NCBI GenBank assembly: GCA_964354805.1
Contig: CAYHBD010000002.1
Location: 1-30,702, forward strand
Source of the DNA: an uncultured archaeon
GTDB taxonomy: Archaea > Iainarchaeota > Iainarchaeia > Iainarchaeales > GCA-2688035
Direction: 5' to 3'
DNA: 30,702 nucleotides
This document shows, piece by piece, positions 3,162 to 12,695 of this stretch. A program made the position numbers and the translations under genes. Below the pieces are notes generated by a model. That model was not told where the DNA came from, ran no database searches, and saw only the letters and a list, made by a program, of their open reading frames with translations. Each line of letters starts with the position of its first letter. The stretch's first letter is position 1.

Positions 3162-3287
3162 GCGTCCGTAATCTAGTGGCAGGATTCGAGCTTCCCAACA
3201 GCTTTTCTTTAAAAAAGAAAAGCTGTATCAAAAGAAAACGCTGAAAGGAACAAGCTCGCAACCCGGGTTCGAATCCCGGCGGACGCA
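3162..3287 (+). tRNA. tRNA-Gly(CCC) with 55-nt intron at 37/38
   Basis: Acceptor GCGTCCG/CGGACGC, anticodon arm CGAGC-TTCCCA|A-GCTCG, T arm CCGGG-TTCGAAT-CCCGG; CCA not encoded. Confidence 0.95.
3198..3252 (+). other. tRNA intron, BHB/BHL splice motif
   Basis: Central helix TTCC/GGAA flanked by two CAA bulges; outer helix CAGC/GCTG with extra AAA; internal hairpin ACAGCTTTTCTTT-AAA-AAAGAAAAGCTGT. Confidence 0.9.
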
Positions 3288-4192: not shown

Positions 4193-5158
4193 CTACTCCT
4201 TTATCTCCGCATTGTCAATCTGCCCGTCACTGTCTAAATCCAGGCCTTCCACTACTTTTGCGTGCTTTGTTTTGTCAAAAAGATTCGGCTTTACTGCCTC
4301 GCTAAGCTGCTTTATCAGGGCGATGATTGCTGCTTTTGTTCCACTATTCCTGTTTCCTGCAATCAGCAGGATTGACTTCTTCGCAAATTTGGGGTGCTGG
4401 ATTTTCTGGATTATTCCAATGGCATCCTCGCTGTATTCCTTTCCTGTAACAGTGCTTTTTATTACAAAATGGCCGTTGCTTGAAACAAACCTGATTGGCA
4501 GATGCTGGTTTAATTCGCTTGAAAGCTTGTTTGTGATAGGGCCTCCAACAATCACCAGGTTGCTGTTCTCGTCTTCAATTGACTGAATCATTGTGTCAAG
4601 GAAAACAAGCGGAAAGCTTACCTCATTTGCGAGAGATGCAAGGAATGCAGCCAACTCTACAGCCAGATGGGTGTCCCTTGCCCTTGCCTTGAATTCTCCG
4701 TGGGGGTCGGTGCTTCCAACAACTATTTTGCAGTCAAGCCTTCCCTCTGTGATGAATGGCTCAAAGAATTGCTTAATGCTTTGGGGCAGTTCCTTTTTTT
4801 TCTCCCTTGCAAAGCTGAATTCCTTTTTTCTCGCGGCCTGTTCCAGCGAAGGGGCAATTGCAAAGCAGTCGAATTTGCTTGAAAAGTATTTTGCCAGGGC
4901 GCCCTGCTTTTCCTCTGTTTTTTGCAGTTCCAAAAGCCCTGCTCCCCTCAGCTGCTTGATGCAGTAGTAAACCTTCTGCTCGTGCACATTAAGCGCCTTG
5001 GCTATTTCAGCAGGATACATCGGTTTTTTGCTTAGCAGAAGCAGAATCTGCCATGCAGTGGCATTCAGCAATGGCTTTAACTGCTGCACATCATGGAAAA
5101 TCTTTACTGGCAGCCTTATCTCGCTGTTCTCAACCATGCTAACAAGGAAATCAGCCAT
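4193..5158 (-). CDS. ArsR-like HTH regulator with C-terminal S-layer-C-like domain
   Basis: WQILLLLSKKPMYPAEIAKALNVHEQKVYY HTH; NLVIVGGPITNKLS and LIAGNRNSGTKAA motifs; terminal DLDSDGQID Ca-loop-like motif; GGTGG RBS. Confidence 0.8.
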   Translation of the reverse strand: MADFLVSMVENSEIRLPVKIFHDVQQLKPLLNATAWQILLLLSKKPMYPAEIAKALNVHEQKVYYCIKQLRGAGLLELQKTEEKQGALAKYFSSKFDCFAIAPSLEQAARKKEFSFAREKKKELPQSIKQFFEPFITEGRLDCKIVVGSTDPHGEFKARARDTHLAVELAAFLASLANEVSFPLVFLDTMIQSIEDENSNLVIVGGPITNKLSSELNQHLPIRFVSSNGHFVIKSTVTGKEYSEDAIGIIQKIQHPKFAKKSILLIAGNRNSGTKAAIIALIKQLSEAVKPNLFDKTKHAKVVEGLDLDSDGQIDNAEIKE

Positions 5159-5373
5159 TCAAGCCACCAAAACGCGCTATTTTCAATTTTTTATACCGTT
5201 ATTAATATTATTATAACATCAATATAATTGTTTAAAAACCTTTTGCCTTCTTTGCCCTGAATCGCCAAAAGCGCTTGAATTTTTTAATAAGAGATATTTG
5301 AATATAAAGGTGTTTATCGCTAATTAATTCAACTGATTTTCCAAAAATATGCCTTTTGCTAAAAGTGGTTTTT

Positions 5374-7191
5374 TTGTGCGGAATTGTTGCATTCAAAGGA
5401 GATAAAGGCGCTGTCCAGCTTGTGCTGTCTGGATTAAAGCAGCTTGAATACAGGGGCTATGACAGCTGGGGCATTGCATCTCTTGCCAATGGAAAAATAG
5501 CCTGCGAGAAAAGCGTTGGCAGAATCGGGCAAATGGAAAAAGTCAAGCTTCCTGAAAGTGGCATTGCGATAGGGCATACAAGATGGGCAACACATGGGGC
5601 AGTAACAGAGCAGAATGCTCATCCACATTTTGATTGCGGCAAAAAGATTGCAATAGTGCACAATGGAATAATCGAGAATTTCTCTGCCCTGAAAGAGCAG
5701 CTGCTTGCAAAAGGCCACTGCTTTAGGAGCGAAACAGACAGCGAAGTGATTGCGCATTTGATTGAAGAGGAAAGGAAAAATTGCGGCAATTTCAGCAATG
5801 CTGTTGCAAAAGCGCTTTCGCAATTGCATGGGAGCTTTGCTATTGCGGCAATTGATTCTGATTCAAAAGAAATTGTTGGAGCAAGGAAAAACAGCCCTCT
5901 TGTTGTTGGTTTTGCAGATGGCGCATTCTTCCTTGCAAGCGATGTAACCGCTTTCCTGCAGCATACTAGGAAAGCCGCTTTTCTTCTGGATAATGAAATG
6001 GTTTTGCTTAATAAGGGCGCAACCTTCATAGACCTTGGCTCAAGCCAGCCTGTTCGGAAAAAGATTGAATCAATTGAATGGCAGCAGGATGCTGCAAGCA
6101 AAGGCTGCTTTGAGCACTTTATGCTGAAGGAAATCTTTGAGCAGCCTGACAGGTGCAGGGCAACAATGCATGGCAGGCTGATGCAGGCTGGAATAAAACT
6201 GCCGGAGCTGCTTCCTGTGATTGAAAAGGCTGCCGAATTCAACAGAATTATTTTTGTCGGCTGCGGAACTGCTTTTCATGCAGGAATGGTTGCAGAGTAC
6301 ATTTTTGAGGAATTGTGCAAAATCCCTGTGGCAACACAATATGCTTCAGAATTCAGGTACAGGCAGCCGGTAATTGATGAAAAAACCCTTGTTATTGCAA
6401 TAAGCCAGAGCGGTGAAACAGCCGACACTCTTGCTGCAGTAAGGGAAGCAAAGGCAAGGAAAGCAACAGTTCTTTCAATAATCAATGTTGTTGGCTCAAC
6501 AATTGCAAGGGAATCGGATTTCGTTTTTTACATAAATGCAGGCCCTGAGATAGGGGTTGCCTCGACAAAGGCATTCACCTGCCAGCTGGCTGCGCTTTCA
6601 ATGATTGCAATAGCATTCGCCCGGAAACTGAAAAGCGCTGAAAAAAACAATCTGGCTGAATTGGCTGTTTCATTGAAAAAGTTGCCAGTGCAGATTGAAG
6701 AGGTTCTGCAGGAAAGCAAACACATTGAAGAAATTGCAAACAGGTTTTCTGAGAAACGAAACGCCTTGTTTTTGGGCAGGGGAGTAAATTACCCGATTGC
6801 ATTGGAGGGCGCTTTGAAGCTGAAGGAGATTAGCTATGTGCATGCAGAGGCAATGCCTGCAGCAGAAATGAAGCACGGCCCTATTGCCTTGATCGACAAG
6901 GAAATGCCTGTTGTTTTCATTGCACCAAATGACAAAAGCTATGAAAAGATTCTGGGCAATATTGAGGAAGTGAAAGCAAGGCATGGGAAAGTGATTGCGA
7001 TTGCAAACAACGGAAACAGCAAATTGCAGGAAATGGTTGATGAAACAATTTTCGTTCCCAAAACGCATGAATTGCTGCAGCCAATTCTGAACATTGTTCC
7101 CTTGCAGCTGTTCGCATACCACGTTGCCAGGCTGCGCGGCTGTGACATTGACAAGCCCAAGAATCTGGCAAAGAGCGTAACGGTTGAATGA
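5374..7191 (+). CDS. glmS: Glutamine--fructose-6-phosphate aminotransferase
   Basis: (M)CGIV N-terminus from TTG 5374, LEYRGYDS, GHTRWATHG, SQSGETADT, ALKLKEISY, KNLAKSVTVE C-terminus. Confidence 0.97.
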   Translation: MCGIVAFKGDKGAVQLVLSGLKQLEYRGYDSWGIASLANGKIACEKSVGRIGQMEKVKLPESGIAIGHTRWATHGAVTEQNAHPHFDCGKKIAIVHNGIIENFSALKEQLLAKGHCFRSETDSEVIAHLIEEERKNCGNFSNAVAKALSQLHGSFAIAAIDSDSKEIVGARKNSPLVVGFADGAFFLASDVTAFLQHTRKAAFLLDNEMVLLNKGATFIDLGSSQPVRKKIESIEWQQDAASKGCFEHFMLKEIFEQPDRCRATMHGRLMQAGIKLPELLPVIEKAAEFNRIIFVGCGTAFHAGMVAEYIFEELCKIPVATQYASEFRYRQPVIDEKTLVIAISQSGETADTLAAVREAKARKATVLSIINVVGSTIARESDFVFYINAGPEIGVASTKAFTCQLAALSMIAIAFARKLKSAEKNNLAELAVSLKKLPVQIEEVLQESKHIEEIANRFSEKRNALFLGRGVNYPIALEGALKLKEISYVHAEAMPAAEMKHGPIALIDKEMPVVFIAPNDKSYEKILGNIEEVKARHGKVIAIANNGNSKLQEMVDETIFVPKTHELLQPILNIVPLQLFAYHVARLRGCDIDKPKNLAKSVTVE

Positions 7192-7245
7192 ATATGGCAG
7201 GCAGGAAATCTTGCAAAGAGCGTAACGGTGGAGTGAATATGGAAG
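7162..7245 (+). repeat. 45-nt-period tandem duplication of the glmS 3' end
   Basis: 7162-7200 vs 7207-7245; both encode NLAKSVTVE*, with differences CTG/CTT, GTT/GTG, GAA/GAG. Confidence 0.92.
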
Positions 7246-7691
7246 ATGATGTTGTTTTCAGGGAGGCAAAGCACAGCGATTTGCACAATCTGCTTAGCCT
7301 GCTGCACCAGCTTAGTCCGCCGAAGGATGCAGAGAAAAGCCCTTCTCATGATGAGCTGCTGCCTATTCTGGATAAAATAATCAAGGATGAGAACCACTTT
7401 ATTTTTGTTCTGGAAAAAGAGGGCAGGCTGCTTGGGACAGCAACCCTTTTGCTGCAGATGAATTTGTCCCATGCAGGCAGGCCTTATGCCCACATTGAGA
7501 ATGTTGTCATTGACGAAAAGCACAGGGGCAAGGGCGTTGGAAAAAAGATCCTCGGGCATCTGGTTGAAAAGGCAAAAGAGAGAAATTGCTACAAAATCAT
7601 TCTGCACTGCAAAAAGGACAGCATTCTGCCTTTCTACAAAAAATGCGGCCTGCAGGAAACAGGCGAAGTGGAAATGCGATTTGATTTATAA
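7239..7691 (+). CDS. GNAT acetyltransferase, glucosamine-6-phosphate N-acetyltransferase (GNA1)-like
   Basis: TATLLLQMNLSH..AHIENVVIDEKHRGKGVGK..NCYKIILHC..FYKKCG resembles GNA1; directly after glmS; start could alternatively be 7188/7194. Confidence 0.8.
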   Translation: MEDDVVFREAKHSDLHNLLSLLHQLSPPKDAEKSPSHDELLPILDKIIKDENHFIFVLEKEGRLLGTATLLLQMNLSHAGRPYAHIENVVIDEKHRGKGVGKKILGHLVEKAKERNCYKIILHCKKDSILPFYKKCGLQETGEVEMRFDL

Positions 7692-7709
7692 CCGGTCAGT
7701 GAGTTTGCT

Positions 7710-7787
7710 ATGACAAATATTAAAGCGGTTTTTTTGATAGCCTGGGTGTGAAAGGGAATGGCAGATATTAGAGCGATTTTTTTTGAT
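7710..7787 (+). repeat. 48-nt-period duplication of the HAD gene 5' end
   Basis: 7710 ATGACAAATATTAAAGCGGTTTTTTTGAT (MTNIKAVF, one T short) vs 7758 ATGGCAGATATTAGAGCGATTTTTTTTGAT (MADIRAIFFD). Confidence 0.8.
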
Positions 7788-9443
7788 TTGGATGACACTC
7801 TTTTCGACTGTAGCGGCAGCCTTATTGAGAACGCGAGAAAAAGAGCAGCAGGTGCAATGGTTGCAGCAGGCCTGCCTTTGAGTATTGAGGAAGCCTATAA
7901 AATGCAGGTTCAGCTGTTTGAGCAGCTCGGCCCTTTGGAGGATATTTTTGACAGAATGTGCGAAAAACAGCAGCTGAGCAAGGACGAAAGGAAAAAAATT
8001 GTTGAGGCTGCTTTTAACGCCTACAATAGCGATGAGGTTGAACAGATTCAGTTGTTTCCCGATGTATTGCCTGCACTGCGAAAACTGCGCAAAAAAGGAA
8101 TTAAAACAGCTTTGATTACAAGCGGAATCTTTGAAAGGCAGCGGAAAAAAATTGAACTGCTTGGCTTGCAGGACAAATTCGATTTGGTTTTGATTCACGA
8201 TGTTGAAAAGGATGCAAGCAAGGAAGAAAAATTCCAGATTGCGTTGCGGGAACTGAACCTGCTGCCACAGCATGTTGCCGTTGTTGGAGACAGGGTTCAC
8301 AGCGAAATAAGGATTGCAAACAAGCTTGGGATGGTTAGCGTCAGAATTATGAGAGGCAGGTTCAGCTCTGTCAAGCCGAGAACAGATTTGGAGGAACCTG
8401 ATTTTAAAATAAAGAAAATCAGTGAATTGCCGGCGCTGCTTGAAAAAGTAAAGCACCTGCAGAAAAAGGAAAACGGTTTCAAAATTGTTGCAATAGGCGG
8501 AGGCACAGGGCTGCCAAGCGTTCTAAGCGGCCTAAGGGAGCACACAAAGCGCCTTACCGCAATTGTTACTGTAACTGACAGCGGCAGAAGCAGCGGTGTT
8601 CTGCGCAATGACCTGAATGTTCTGCCTCCGGGAGATATCAGAAATTGCTTAATCAGCCTGAGTAATTCAGGCGAATTGATGAAGCAGCTTTTCCAGTACA
8701 GGTTCTCAGGCGGCAAGCAGCTTGATGGAATGAGTTTGGGCAATCTTTTCATTGCAGGCCTTGCAAAGGTTACCGGCAGCTTTGAGAAAGCTATAAAGGA
8801 AACAAGCAAAATCCTTGCAATTGAAGGGCAGGTTCTGCCCTCAACACTTACCGATACGCATTTGTGCGCCGAGCTTTCCGATGGCAGCATTATAGAGCAG
8901 GAATTCAATGTAAGAAAGCTTGACAAGGCGCCAATAAAGAGGGTTTTCTTAAAGCCTGCAAACGCTTCCCTGCTGCCTGCCGCTGCAAAGGCAATAAAGG
9001 AAGCCGATTTGATTGTTCTCGGTCCTGGGAGCTTGTTCACCTCCGTTATCACAAACCTTCTTGTGAAGGGAATGCCTGCTGCAATCAAAAAGAGCAAGGC
9101 GAAAAAGGTTTTAATCTGCAATATTATGACCCAGGCTGGGCAAACCGATAATTTCACTTTGAGCCGGCACATTAATACTGTTGAGCAATACCTGGGCAAG
9201 AATGTTCTGGATTTCTTGATAATCAACAATGGAAAGCCAAGCGCTGCTGTTCTGCAGCATTACAAGAAAGAGAATGCGCAGCTTGTGGCAGCCGACAAGC
9301 AGAATCTCCCTGCAAAGTTGCAGGTGATTGAAGCCGATTTGATTGACAGAAAAAGGGCTGTTGCGCACGAATGGCGCAAGGTTGATTTGCTCAGGCACGA
9401 CAGCGAAAAGCTGGCGAAATTGCTGATCGGATTGATTGGCTGA
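7758..9443 (+). CDS. Fusion: HAD-IA hydrolase (N-terminal, about 235 aa) + YvcK/GlmR (CofD-like) domain
   Basis: FFDLDDTL, LITSG, VGDRVHSEI HAD motifs; KIVAIGGGTGL, IVTVTDSGRSSG.LR, PPGDIRNCL, LGPGSLFTS, LRHDSEKLA YvcK motifs in one frame. Confidence 0.9.
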   Translation: MADIRAIFFDLDDTLFDCSGSLIENARKRAAGAMVAAGLPLSIEEAYKMQVQLFEQLGPLEDIFDRMCEKQQLSKDERKKIVEAAFNAYNSDEVEQIQLFPDVLPALRKLRKKGIKTALITSGIFERQRKKIELLGLQDKFDLVLIHDVEKDASKEEKFQIALRELNLLPQHVAVVGDRVHSEIRIANKLGMVSVRIMRGRFSSVKPRTDLEEPDFKIKKISELPALLEKVKHLQKKENGFKIVAIGGGTGLPSVLSGLREHTKRLTAIVTVTDSGRSSGVLRNDLNVLPPGDIRNCLISLSNSGELMKQLFQYRFSGGKQLDGMSLGNLFIAGLAKVTGSFEKAIKETSKILAIEGQVLPSTLTDTHLCAELSDGSIIEQEFNVRKLDKAPIKRVFLKPANASLLPAAAKAIKEADLIVLGPGSLFTSVITNLLVKGMPAAIKKSKAKKVLICNIMTQAGQTDNFTLSRHINTVEQYLGKNVLDFLIINNGKPSAAVLQHYKKENAQLVAADKQNLPAKLQVIEADLIDRKRAVAHEWRKVDLLRHDSEKLAKLLIGLIG

Positions 9444-9471
9444 ATGTGATGGCAAAAAATCAGTGGAGTTA

Positions 9472-12400
9472 TTAATTGCCCTGATTGTTTAATTCCATTT
9501 TTTTTCCTGTCACTGCCTCAATGAACAGCCTTCTTACAGTGCCATCTTTCTTTTTCAGGAATGATTCAAAGACAGGCAAATAAACCACATCTATTTTTTT
9601 TACTATTGCGTTCTGCCACAACTTTTTCAGCATTTTTGGCAAAGCGTTCCTGTCGATTGCAGCGTGCATTAGGCTGATTGCTGTTGCGTTCTCAACAGGC
9701 AGCCTGCTCAATGATGCAAGCAATGGGTGCAAAGCATTTGAGGGCAAATCAATTTCTTTTACCGTGCTGACAAAGTCTGTTCCTGCGCTCTCCTCAATTC
9801 TAACATAGCCTTTTTCCAGAAGGTTCCGCACTGTTCTCTTTACAACAGCTTCTTCTTCCTCCATTTGCTGGACTATTGCGGCAAACTCTTTCTTCCTGTT
9901 CTCAAGCGCTAATAGAACCTTCACTTCCCTTTCACTTAATTCATTCAGCTGCTGCAGGCCCTTGCTTTCAATGAACTGCCTTTTGCCCGGCAGAAAGTGC
10001 ATAAACTCTCCGGAAATGCTGTTGATGAATGCCTCTACTCTGTGGAATGCCTGCTTGTTTCCGAACGCATGCAATTCAACCCTGAAAACAGGCAGATAGC
10101 GCAGCTGCACGCTGTCAAGCCCCTCTTCCTCTCCAATCAAGCCCAAAAATTTCTTTTTCCTGATTGAATTGAACATTGCCTTTGCCTGCTCTTCTTTTAC
10201 GTTTGCAGGGAAAGCAAGCAATTCAACTTCTTCGCCTGACAGCGCCTCTTTTTCCTCTTGTTCAACTTCCTCTTCAGGCTCGCCGACAGGTTCCTCTGCT
10301 ATTTCTTCTTCCTCTTCTTCCGCGCCTGGCTGCATTATTGAACTGCTTTTTCCGTCAATTATTGCACCGCTTTCTTCCACTGCACCAAGCACTTCGCTCA
10401 GCTTTATTTTTGCGTTGTATTTTGCATTCAGTGTTTTAACCAGCTCGTCAACATCGCCTGTGGCAAGCCTGCCGCTTTTCCTCAGCTTGTTGTTCACCAT
10501 TTCAACTGCCAAAAGCAGCACTTTTTCCTTTCCCAGGTGCATTTCCCTTTCGGCTGTTTCCGATTCCCTGCCCTCGTGCTGTGACATTCTGGGCCTGACC
10601 CTTAAAATAAATGCCCTGCTTGTTTCCTCGCGCCTGTCCCCCACAAGGGCAACACCTATTGGGAGGGTTTTGATAAAGTTGCTTTTCCTGTACCTTTTCG
10701 GCACAATTGTCGGAGTCCTTTTGTAAATTGCCTTAATGTCGTCGTCAAATACCAATTTGTGCGCAATCATCAAGTCAAGCTGGCTCAAGACCTTTGAATT
10801 TATTGCGCTTGGCTGCTGTGTTGCGAAAACAATTGAGCAGCCTGGCTGCCTTCCCTGCTTCACATACTCAACAAGCGCATTGCTTGCCGGCGATGCAATG
10901 TTTCCGCTTGGAATAAGCGTATGCGCTTCATCAATGAAAAGCCATGTTGGCGGAATCCCGAATTCAAGCAGCTTGTCCATGTCCTGCTCTTTCTCGTAGC
11001 GCTGCGCAGACTCCTGCCTTGTGCTAATCTTTCTTGCAGCAAGAATCCTTCTTGCAAGCAATCCGATCACCAAAGCGCTTACATTGTCATCCAAAAAGCT
11101 GGTGTCAATTATCGTAAGCTGGTTCTGCCTGCTCAATTCTCCCAGTGGAGTGCCCTTTTCGTCAAAAATGCCCCATGCTTTTGCTGCATCAAACCTGCTT
11201 GCCAATGCCCTTATTGAATCGCTCTTATACCCCATTTCGCTGCTTGAAAGTTCGCTGTCTGTGTGAAGGCATTCAATCAATCCATCCATTGAAAAATTGT
11301 CCTTTCTGCCCTTGATTGTTTTCCCTTCCTTGTTTTTGTAGCCGTTCTTAATCTTGAAAATTGTTTTCTCCATCAGCAGGCCGCTTGGGCTGAACCTGTC
11401 TATTCCAAATGTTAAGCACCAGTCTTCTGTTGTTAGCAAAGCAGGCTGTATGCTGAATGTTTCGTCAAAAGTGTTTGATGGCATTTTGTCCTGCATTCCT
11501 GCCGGAACAAACACCTTGACATTCTCAAGGCCCTGCGGCAGCATGTCCCACTTCGCAAGCAACTGCAGTTCCTTTTCATCCTTGTTCGGAAAGCGCATGC
11601 TCCAGAAAACGCCTACCGGGTCGACAACAATTGTCCCGACATTCTTGTTGTGCAGCGCGAGCTCTTCAGCAATTATCCCAAGCAAGTAAGATTTTCCGGA
11701 TCCGCGTGCACCGCAAATAAATACCACGTGTGGGTTTAGGCTGTCCAGGAAAACATGCTTTCCCTTTGAATCCTCTTCAGCCACTTCCCCGATGAAAAGC
11801 CCTGCCTCGCTTCCGTATTTCTGGGCAACGCTTTTCTTTCTCCCAATGAAAACATTTCCGCCATCATCCTGCAAAAAGCTCAGCGCAGGCTTCATTCCAA
11901 TGTGCTGCACCAGTTCAGGCTTTTGTTCAACGGCTTCCGCCAGCTCTCCAAGCGGTTCGCCTTCTTTTACCCCAACCTCTTTTACGCCAGCCTCTTTATC
12001 CAAATCAAGCAACTCCTCTTGCTTTGCAGCCTTGGCAGCCTTTGCAACAACAATCCTCTTTATCTTCGCCCTAAGGCGCTTTTTTCCCTCATCCTCGTCA
12101 ACCGGCGGAGCAATCACCTTTGCCTTTCTCTGCCTTTTCTTTCTCGCGGGCTTTTCCTCTTCTTCGCTTTCCTCCCCTTCAGCCTCATCAGGCTCGCTTT
12201 CTTCCTCTTCTTCTGCCTCTTCTTCGTCTTCTTCTTCAGCAGCCTCTTCCTCTTCGCTTTCCTCTTCTTCCTGCTCTGCATCTCCCCCTTTGGTTTCCTC
12301 TTCCCGCTCTTCTGTTTCTTCTGCCTCTTCCTCGTTTTCCTCTGCCGCCTCTTCGCTTTCTTCCCCTTTGCTTTCCTCTTTTTCAGCCTCTTTTCTGCCT

Positions 12401-12510
12401 GTTTTTTTCGCTGCCTTCGCTTTCCCTGTTTCTTCTCCGAAGACCTCTTCAAACAGGTCACTGCCTTTTTCTTCAGCAGGCTCATTATCTTCATTCTTTT
12501 CTTTGGGCAT
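9472..12510 (-). CDS. HerA/DUF87-like P-loop ATPase with acidic N-terminal extension and C-terminal winged-helix-containing region
   Basis: HVVFICGARGSGKSY (Walker A), IVVDPVG, WLFIDEAH (Walker B), KQGRQPG.SIVFATQQPS; ATG 12510 with GTGGT RBS. Confidence 0.85.
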   Translation of the reverse strand: MPKEKNEDNEPAEEKGSDLFEEVFGEETGKAKAAKKTGRKEAEKEESKGEESEEAAEENEEEAEETEEREEETKGGDAEQEEEESEEEEAAEEEDEEEAEEEEESEPDEAEGEESEEEEKPARKKRQRKAKVIAPPVDEDEGKKRLRAKIKRIVVAKAAKAAKQEELLDLDKEAGVKEVGVKEGEPLGELAEAVEQKPELVQHIGMKPALSFLQDDGGNVFIGRKKSVAQKYGSEAGLFIGEVAEEDSKGKHVFLDSLNPHVVFICGARGSGKSYLLGIIAEELALHNKNVGTIVVDPVGVFWSMRFPNKDEKELQLLAKWDMLPQGLENVKVFVPAGMQDKMPSNTFDETFSIQPALLTTEDWCLTFGIDRFSPSGLLMEKTIFKIKNGYKNKEGKTIKGRKDNFSMDGLIECLHTDSELSSSEMGYKSDSIRALASRFDAAKAWGIFDEKGTPLGELSRQNQLTIIDTSFLDDNVSALVIGLLARRILAARKISTRQESAQRYEKEQDMDKLLEFGIPPTWLFIDEAHTLIPSGNIASPASNALVEYVKQGRQPGCSIVFATQQPSAINSKVLSQLDLMIAHKLVFDDDIKAIYKRTPTIVPKRYRKSNFIKTLPIGVALVGDRREETSRAFILRVRPRMSQHEGRESETAEREMHLGKEKVLLLAVEMVNNKLRKSGRLATGDVDELVKTLNAKYNAKIKLSEVLGAVEESGAIIDGKSSSIMQPGAEEEEEEIAEEPVGEPEEEVEQEEKEALSGEEVELLAFPANVKEEQAKAMFNSIRKKKFLGLIGEEEGLDSVQLRYLPVFRVELHAFGNKQAFHRVEAFINSISGEFMHFLPGKRQFIESKGLQQLNELSEREVKVLLALENRKKEFAAIVQQMEEEEAVVKRTVRNLLEKGYVRIEESAGTDFVSTVKEIDLPSNALHPLLASLSRLPVENATAISLMHAAIDRNALPKMLKKLWQNAIVKKIDVVYLPVFESFLKKKDGTVRRLFIEAVTGKKMELNNQGN

Positions 12511-12695
12511 TAAAAACCACTTTAGCACTATAGCGAACTGCCTATGTTTTTGAACTTTTTATTGCAGTTTGCTATTTGCAAAAAGCAATTCAATATTCAA
12601 TCATTTAGGCTTTTTGCTATAAAATAGACGCGCTTCAAATATTTTAAGTTAATGTTTTCGGATTTCAGCCCCAAAAAATTGTTTTTGCCTTTTCC

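Follow-up and report, generated by a model that had tools for sequence, protein, structure and literature searches.

UDP-N-acetylglucosamine (UDP-GlcNAc) serves as universal donor in the synthesis of cell envelopes and N-glycans, and the textbook prokaryotic route to it runs through GlmS, GlmM and GlmU. The role of GlmR/YvcK proteins in this pathway is debated: they have been viewed as GlmS activators, as UDP-GlcNAc sensors and as accessory uridylyltransferases. Here we describe a 30,702-nucleotide (nt) stretch of DNA from an uncultured archaeon of the Iainarchaeota (contig CAYHBD010000002.1; 'the window' denotes this whole stretch), in which glmS is followed by a gene for a GNA1-like GNAT acetyltransferase and by a gene that fuses a HAD domain to a YvcK/GlmR domain (HAD::YvcK). 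Our reading, held tentatively and with somewhat less than even confidence, is that this three-gene hexosamine operon replaces the glmS-glmM-glmU (LbH half) operon of sister lineages, and that the fusion is an accessory homeostasis device.

In B. subtilis, GlmR binds UDP-GlcNAc via Y265 and R301 and stimulates GlmS, while its GlcNAc-1-phosphate (GlcNAc-1-P) uridylyltransferase activity needs D38/D39, or D40/D41/N198 in the Listeria protein (PMC7525490, PMC10128056, PMC13046274). Archaeal glmR homologues have been treated as CofD, and yvcK has been said always to travel with yvcJ (PMC7525490); both statements are contradicted by the phylum studied here. A 2026 preprint describes bacteria, one planctomycete included, that have only the N-terminal half of GlmU, and infers an "unidentified acetyltransferase". 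Finally, an engineered set of GlmS, GNA1 and the HAD phosphatase YqaB, built to overproduce GlcNAc, works as a route to the free sugar (PMC8775389).

The original prediction for this DNA described three tightly linked, co-oriented genes, the third of which joins an intact DxD HAD-IA domain to a full YvcK domain. The three-gene operon is confirmed by the open reading frames (ORFs), the profile matches and the HAD motif I (FDLDDT): all three ORFs lie on the + strand, are intact, run in the same direction and are separated by short gaps. The operon comprises the following features:

5374..7191, + strand: glmS, glutamine--fructose-6-phosphate aminotransferase, 605 amino acids (aa) (NF001484, TIGR01135, GATase and two SIS domains)
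7170..7243, + strand: 28-nt near-repeat, in which the glmS 3' end (7170-7197) recurs, with 3 mismatches, at 7216-7243, just ahead of the probable GNAT start
7239..7691, + strand: GNA1-like GNAT, 150 aa, candidate glucosamine-6-phosphate (GlcN-6-P) N-acetyltransferase, its ORF open from 7188
7758..9443, + strand: HAD::YvcK fusion protein, 561 aa (profile, PDB and model evidence)
7767..8450, + strand: HAD-IA domain, residues 4-231, NANP/PH1655-like (TIGR02253, PDB, motif residues)
8484..9431, + strand: YvcK/GlmR (UPF0052, CofD-like) domain, residues 243-558 (TIGR01826, PDB, Foldseek)

The first gene is predicted to encode GlmS by its scores (NF001484, 814 bits against a cut-off of 381; TIGR01135, 802 bits against 418), by its Pfam domains (GATase-II and two SIS) and by its N-terminus, since the start, TTG at 5374 as originally proposed, is directly followed by TGC for the catalytic Cys. 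Since alignments of relatives to the second ORF (7188-7691) begin only at residue 18-24, ATG 7239 is the likelier GNAT start; the near-repeat probably explains the 17-residue N-terminal extension of this ORF that relatives lack.

The GNAT protein matches Pfam Acetyltransf_1 at 1.6e-19. Its top match in a PDB sequence search is 2dxq, an uncharacterised bacterial GNAT, and its closest characterised relatives with solved structures are eukaryotic GNA1 enzymes: those of T. brucei (3fb3/3i3g, 1e-18), Arabidopsis (3t90, 4e-15) and yeast (1i12, 7e-13), with 2huz at 3e-12. We take the catalytic elements of GNA1 to be a Glu-Asp-Ile motif and a Tyr general acid (yeast E98, D99, I100 and Y143). When aligned with T. 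brucei GNA1, the window protein reads H-I-E-N-V-V against H-I-E-D-V-V, and so differs from GNA1 in having IEN in place of IED, while the P-F-Y-K-K-C-G segment is conserved. Orthologues of this GNA1-like type occupy the same operon slot in five relatives (G001, G012, G007, G014 and G003; the window's own genome is G000, G001 onward are other genomes, and f and g label families and genera). The remaining GNAT loci read carry a second, non-orthologous and commoner type, 'c8', which is RimI-like and most similar to RimI and archaeal N-alpha-acetyltransferases.

The C-terminal domain of the fusion is assigned to YvcK/GlmR both by score (TIGR01826, 355 bits against a cut-off of 196; PDB 2ppv and 2hzb at ~1e-75) and by predicted fold, superposing on BH3568 (2hzb) with a Foldseek TM-score of 0.96 and a root-mean-square deviation of 1.4. 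The CofD model TIGR01819, in contrast, gives 35 bits against a cut-off of 257. Like the Firmicute and Actinobacterial proteins (2hzb/2o2z BH3568 and 2ppv; 41-43% identity), the domain has the GGGTGL motif, the first catalytic Asp, an Asn equivalent to N198 and a candidate UDP-GlcNAc-binding Tyr and Arg, as well as a link to GlmS and UDP-GlcNAc supply. Its further motifs are TDSGRSSG, GPGSLFTS..N433, Y502 and R546-H-D-S. Y502 aligns with Tyr264 of 2hzb and R546 lies in RHD(S); their correspondence to B. subtilis Y265/R301 is presumed rather than read from a direct alignment. Among the residues reported for uridylyltransferase activity, D274 (the first Asp) and N433 (the Asn) do not vary across the aligned fusions, while the second Asp is replaced by Ser275, itself invariant or nearly so; the S. 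epidermidis protein 2ppv carries Asn there. The catalytic motif thus reads T-D-S-G-R-S-S-G in the fusion and A-D-D-G-G-S-S-G in Firmicutes. Since unfused YvcK proteins of Thermoflexales, the only ones that a related-locus search with a single protein brought up, share D-T-G-R, the D-[ST]-G-R motif is a trait of a YvcK subclade and not specific to the fusion. Besides this motif, the fusion differs from described GlmR in its N-terminal HAD domain, in its setting in a glmS-GNAT operon of an archaeon, and in often occurring without any glmS. The yvcJ(rapZ)-yvcK-whiA synteny is absent from the window locus, where the neighbours are glmS, the GNAT gene and a convergent gene for a HerA-like ATPase.

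The HAD domain is, by sequence and by predicted model, nearest to the phosphatases PH1655 and N-acylneuraminate-9-phosphatase (NANP), and not to beta-phosphoglucomutase (beta-PGM). It has the motif residues D10, D12, D13 and T14 (motif I), T121/S122, K153, G177-D178 and E183, and in the model helices 21-112 between motifs I and II form a helical C1 cap, so that motifs I-IV and the cap place it among predicted HAD subfamily IA phosphatases. Its top-scoring HAD model is TIGR02253 (CTE7/NANP-like), at 133.5 bits and thus under the cut-off of 169.75, and its PDB matches include PH1655 (2hoq, 4e-24) and NANP (2gfh/4knw, 1e-12); the beta-PGM model TIGR01990 gives 33 bits against a cut-off of 189.4. 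Among the Foldseek matches listed (ranks 1-50) are NANP and PH1655 and no characterised beta-PGM; the only listed entry named beta-PGM, 3kbb, is given as a carbohydrate phosphatase in the sequence search. Weak matches to pyrimidine 5'-nucleotidase models were also seen. The domain shares the DxDxT motifs and the helical C1 cap with NANP/HDHD4 and PH1655, its closest relatives, and differs from them in its sub-threshold score and in being fused to YvcK. The substrate of NANP is an N-acetylated sugar with a phosphate on a primary hydroxyl.

HAD::YvcK is a family and not a single case. All of the best 120 database matches (50-93% identity), from Diapherotrites-type archaea and Planctomycetes, have both Pfam domains, and the corresponding ESM Atlas cluster has 414 members, 93% with HAD and CofD domains and 68% from Bacteria, mostly Planctomycetota. 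In an alignment of 28 fusions at 43-74% identity, D10, D12, D13, T14, G177, D178 and E183 of the HAD domain and D274, G276, R277, N433, Y502 and R546 of the YvcK domain are invariant; given the invariant HAD motif I and IV and YvcK residues, both domains look catalytically competent. K153, the Lys of motif III, is not kept in some of the bacterial proteins. In an AlphaFold model of the window's fusion protein (pLDDT 88, pTM 0.60), residues 236-239 form a disordered linker, and among the Foldseek matches listed no PDB entry spans both domains.

The fusion and glmS were surveyed in 196 genomes of the phylum with completeness of at least 75%, with a closer look at the 40 nearest relatives. A full-length fusion is present in 32 genomes (families f1, f2, f9, f10 and f7). 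Since glmS, present in 18 of these 32, adjoins the fusion in 17 of the 18 (gap 15-780 nt), the linkage is not chance, and it survived rearrangement, as seen from the order fusion-glmS-GNAT in G018. A GNAT gene stands beside glmS in 14 of the 14 adjacent loci (of 17) whose ORFs were read. The three genes are thus supported as one functional unit, conserved and linked to the synthesis of hexosamines. The linkage does not extend to all carriers: glmS was not found in 14 archaeal fusion genomes or in three of the five bacterial ones. In those glmS-less loci that were examined, the fusion has no GNAT gene as a neighbour; the operonic GNAT accompanies glmS, not the fusion.

Two mutually exclusive modules stand behind glmS: glmM with an LbH acetyltransferase, or GNAT with HAD::YvcK. 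Sister lineages have a glmS-glmM-LbH operon, with the nucleotidyltransferase (NTase) half of GlmU encoded elsewhere (G038, G037, G035, G026, G005 and others; L064-L070); the operonic mutase of G038 scores 597 bits against TIGR01455, above the cut-off. A stand-alone LbH acetyltransferase (the C-half of GlmU) was found in 60 of the 196 genomes and in none of the 32 with the fusion. The glmS-glmM-LbH genomes have two phosphohexomutases, while the fusion genomes have one, of the housekeeping phosphoglucomutase/phosphomannomutase (PGM/PMM) type, and the operonic GlmM of the sister lineages was not found in the fusion genomes tested, that of the window included. Within the window's own order, GlmU is never fused (NTase plus LbH); the fused form occurs in a few genomes of other orders, e.g. 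G214. As a separate observation, 18 of 20 genomes of family f3 (L071) have glmS and show no sign of the fusion or the LbH half; one of them, G024 (94% complete, one contig), yielded neither a phosphohexomutase nor an NTase of GlmU type, and GlmS appears alone in it.

The proposal that fusion carriers lack glmM and glmU therefore holds for the LbH half and for the operonic GlmM, but not for the remaining activities. A phosphohexomutase was matched in 35, and an NTase-only GlmU N-half in 37, of the 40 closest relatives; in family f1 the figures are 21/22 for the housekeeping phosphohexomutase and 22/22 for the NTase-only GlmU N-half. The genome from which the window comes (1.38 Mb, 49 contigs, completeness 88.5%) encodes a single phosphohexomutase, a 469-aa PgmG-like protein of PGM/PMM type on contig C47 (385 bits), and, on C16, a 232-aa NTase-only orthologue of the Arch_glmU N-half (204 bits, positions 1-220 of 393). 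No match to GlmU positions 230-393 (TIGR01173/TIGR03992), hence no LbH half and no bifunctional GlmU, was found in this 88.5% complete genome. A GlmM- and GlmU-free pathway running entirely from the operon, as originally envisaged, is thus not supported: with a mutase and a uridylyltransferase encoded outside the operon, nothing forces the fusion to supply them.

What does stand as plausible is the eukaryote-like order of steps, with acetylation at the 6-phosphate stage. In the window genome, as in the other glmS-bearing fusion genomes, the GNAT is the sole candidate sugar N-acetyltransferase, and there is no LbH half; together these make the order plausible. GlmS, by homology, forms GlcN-6-P; the GNAT would convert it to GlcNAc-6-phosphate (GlcNAc-6-P), the single PGM/PMM-type phosphohexomutase would isomerise this to GlcNAc-1-P, and the NTase-only GlmU N-half homologue would complete UDP-GlcNAc. 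This proposed scheme resembles the eukaryotic hexosamine pathway (GFAT, GNA1, AGM1, UAP1) in that a GNA1-related GNAT follows GlmS and, with no LbH GlcN-1-phosphate acetyltransferase, acetylation probably precedes the mutase step. Unlike the eukaryotic pathway, it would use a PGM/PMM-type mutase and an NTase-only GlmU N-half, as no AGM1- or UAP1-type enzymes were found; the search for UAP1/NagU-type proteins (PF01704) in the window genome is a weak negative, since control genomes gave no signal either. With the canonical route it shares the GlmS start and the same NTase-half orthologue, while the operonic GlmM and LbH acetyltransferase are replaced by GNAT and HAD::YvcK.

The fusion would then act beside this route. 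Its YvcK/GlmR domain would bind UDP-GlcNAc and may contribute extra uridylyltransferase activity, which has been reported for the GlmR of Firmicutes; D274, N433, Y502 and R546, which match residues reported for uridylyltransferase activity or UDP-GlcNAc binding, support a GlmR function. Its NANP-like HAD domain most plausibly dephosphorylates a hexosamine phosphate, with GlcNAc-6-P, GlcN-6-P or a related compound as the likeliest substrate. A phosphatase joined to a domain that binds UDP-GlcNAc suggests a valve under product control, and the two domains together may act on the pool of amino-sugar phosphates as an overflow valve or flux controller that responds to nucleotide sugar. Acting one after the other, GlmS, GNA1 and a phosphatase would give free GlcNAc from fructose-6-phosphate, as in the engineered GlmS-GNA1-YqaB module. 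That module is artificial, whereas the phosphatase of the operon is of another HAD subfamily and joined to a nucleotide-sugar-binding domain, which points to controlled, not constitutive, dephosphorylation. The alternative offered in the original prediction, in which the HAD domain dephosphorylates GlcNAc-6-P and YvcK regulates, fits the evidence better than its preferred mutase scheme, although fusions in glmS-less genomes speak against regulation of GlmS alone; overall, the original interpretation is partly supported.

A phosphatase role is further supported by HAD- or IMPase-type genes that recur beside glmS or yvcK, even in operons that themselves encode a phosphohexomutase. In G025 and G033 the order is glmS-HAD-glmM-LbH, with a YqaB/beta-PGM-like HAD gene between glmS and glmM. 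In G175 (L079, C1; 2980-6262, minus strand) one apparent operon holds an unfused yvcK and, after it, the only phosphohexomutase gene of the genome and a gene for an IMPase/FBPase-family phosphatase. In G214 (L074, C30; 1902-6788, minus strand), from another order of the class, a split form is seen: glmS, a HAD gene (232 aa, TIGR02253-like), a bifunctional glmU (428 aa) and yvcK (343 aa), indicating that HAD and YvcK travel with glmS even in the presence of canonical GlmU.

Several points weigh against the fusion as a homeostasis device. Of the 14 archaeal genomes that keep the fusion where glmS was not found, four are 91-93% complete, and in the bacterial carriers that do have glmS it is unlinked to the fusion; a valve on the de novo pathway is not obviously useful in glmS-less genomes. 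In the fusion, Ser takes the place of the second Asp in the catalytic pair reported for B. subtilis (D38 D39), the pTM of 0.60 leaves the orientation of the domains uncertain, and the use of GlcNAc-6-P by the housekeeping mutase is assumed here. The literature yielded no biochemistry for any fused HAD::YvcK member, nor any paper on HAD-YvcK fusions.

An alternative, close to the original prediction, makes the HAD domain a new HAD-type N-acetylhexosamine-phosphate mutase that turns GlcNAc-6-P into GlcNAc-1-P for uridylylation by YvcK, so that the fusion would be a self-contained converter replacing GlmM. This would account for the mutual exclusion of the two modules and for fusion genomes without operonic GlmM and LbH half, and also for persistence of the fusion without glmS, where a salvage converter would still be useful. 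The unfused yvcK of G175 adjoins the only phosphohexomutase gene, and two f9 genomes (G171 and G173; completeness 82-85%) have the fusion and no phosphohexomutase that we could find; moreover, GlcNAc-1-P uridylyltransferase activity has been reported for GlmR (PMC10128056). We nevertheless consider this model unlikely. The HAD domain is phosphatase-like, nearest to PH1655 and NANP and far below the beta-PGM cut-off; family f1 almost uniformly retains a housekeeping phosphohexomutase and an NTase-only GlmU N-half; HAD genes stand alongside a GlmM-type mutase gene in G025 and G033; G214 combines HAD and YvcK with a bifunctional GlmU; and K153 of motif III is not conserved in bacterial members. 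To our knowledge, there is no HAD-IA mutase for alpha-anomeric GlcNAc phosphates.

Equally unlikely, in our estimate, is that the fusion makes a GlcNAc-derived metabolite other than UDP-GlcNAc, with a CofD-like YvcK domain transferring a phospho-bearing moiety from a nucleoside diphosphate-linked donor such as UDP-GlcNAc to an acceptor, and the HAD domain dephosphorylating the product or removing the released nucleoside monophosphate. Such a two-step synthase-phosphatase would resemble the TPS/TPP, SPS/SPP and MPGS/MPGP pairs; YvcK has the fold of the CofD/FbiA phosphotransferases, invariant catalytic residues are kept in both domains, and the weak pyrimidine 5'-nucleotidase matches of the HAD domain would fit as well. 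It would also suit the many fusion genomes without glmS and the mostly bacterial membership of the Atlas cluster. In genus g5 (G004 and G020), a gene for a GT4 glycosyltransferase lies beside the fusion. However, neither an acceptor nor a product can be named, the CofD model scores far under its cut-off, we found no support in the literature, and homeostasis accounts equally well for the tight glmS-GNAT linkage.

Very unlikely, we believe, is a pure GlmR-type regulator, whose YvcK domain would bind UDP-GlcNAc and stimulate GlmS by contact, as in B. subtilis, while the HAD domain had no role in the pathway. The adjacency to glmS in 17 of 18 genomes, the invariant candidate UDP-GlcNAc-binding residues Y502 and R546 and the documented GlmR-GlmS interaction of B. 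subtilis (PMC7525490, PMC6171935) are all consistent with it. Yet the many archaeal and bacterial fusion genomes where glmS was not found mean that the core role of the fusion cannot be GlmS regulation, the catalytic residues of the HAD domain are invariant across the 28 aligned members, and work on Listeria could not reproduce the interaction of GlmR with GlmS (PMC10128056).

We would also give little credence, to a similar degree, to the operonic GNAT acetylating a protein, either the fusion or GlmS, with the sugar acetylated elsewhere or GlcNAc salvaged. The commoner 'c8' type is most like RimI and archaeal N-alpha-acetyltransferases, and B. subtilis GlmR is regulated by Lys acetylation, with acetylation of K296 reported (PMC13046274). 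Against this stand the similarity of the window GNAT to GNA1 enzymes, the failure to find another candidate sugar N-acetyltransferase in the glmS-bearing fusion genomes, none of which has the LbH half, and the fact that the GNAT goes with glmS and is missing beside the fusion in the glmS-less loci examined.

Two further readings were rejected. A HAD domain acting as inorganic pyrophosphatase to pull the uridylyltransferase has no support, as PpaX- and BT2127-type models score low; the window genome encodes two membrane H+/Na+-pyrophosphatases (G000:C16:37481-39493 and G000:C28:43043-44941), and no soluble pyrophosphatase of family I or II (PF00719, PF02833) was found in it. A bypass of the mutase by a phosphatase and an anomeric kinase was dropped, since the APH-family kinase of genus g9 is ThrB-like and present in only 2-3 genomes. 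In this glmS-less genus (L052, G017, 7896-9974; L055, G015), genes for the kinase and for an HD-NUDIX fusion lie upstream of HAD::YvcK in the same orientation, directly adjacent in G017. The bacterial class of G041 is uninformative as an independent test, because none of its 17 genomes (G041-G057) has a GlmU or GlmM match above curated cut-offs, with or without the fusion. In this class, which includes the Planctomycetota-labelled carrier L010, the fusion occurs in 8 of 17 genomes, with two copies in three, and in G041 an FHA-domain gene ends 4 nt ahead of it.

The surroundings of the operon in the window include the following features:

4193-5158, minus strand: HTH/S-layer-domain regulator gene (ArsR/TrmB-type HTH, S-layer-like C-terminal domain), divergent from glmS
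5159..5373, no strand: divergent AT-rich intergenic region between the HTH gene and glmS, presumed promoter region
9472-12528, minus strand: HerA/DUF87-like ATPase, 1018 aa, with C-terminal TrmB-like HTH, convergent with the fusion

The HTH gene is again found upstream of glmS in G006, G010 and G003, which makes it a possible regulator of the operon. Most of the 20 loci examined in fusion-bearing relatives, with or without glmS, retain the pairing of the HerA-like ATPase with the fusion. An Rfam scan of the operon returned no glmS ribozyme and no other element, and scans for sigma-70 promoters and intrinsic terminators, both with models ill-suited to archaea, stayed at background. The window also has a gene for ribosomal protein L44e and, at 3162-3287, a tRNA gene with an intron.

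The two exclusive modules provide evidence from comparative genomics for a eukaryotic order of steps in some archaea, and the operonic GNATs are candidates for the "unidentified acetyltransferase" of the preprint. That GlmS, GNAT and a fusion self-sufficient from GlcNAc-6-P to UDP-GlcNAc make up a third route to UDP-GlcNAc, needing neither GlmM nor GlmU, strikes us as quite unlikely; if true, this route would be common to DPANN archaea and to many of the Planctomycetota, and the purpose of GlmR enzymes would be settled. In either case, a YvcK domain fused to a phosphatase, encoded in a glmS operon and often kept without glmS, offers a natural and testable handle on the role of GlmR.

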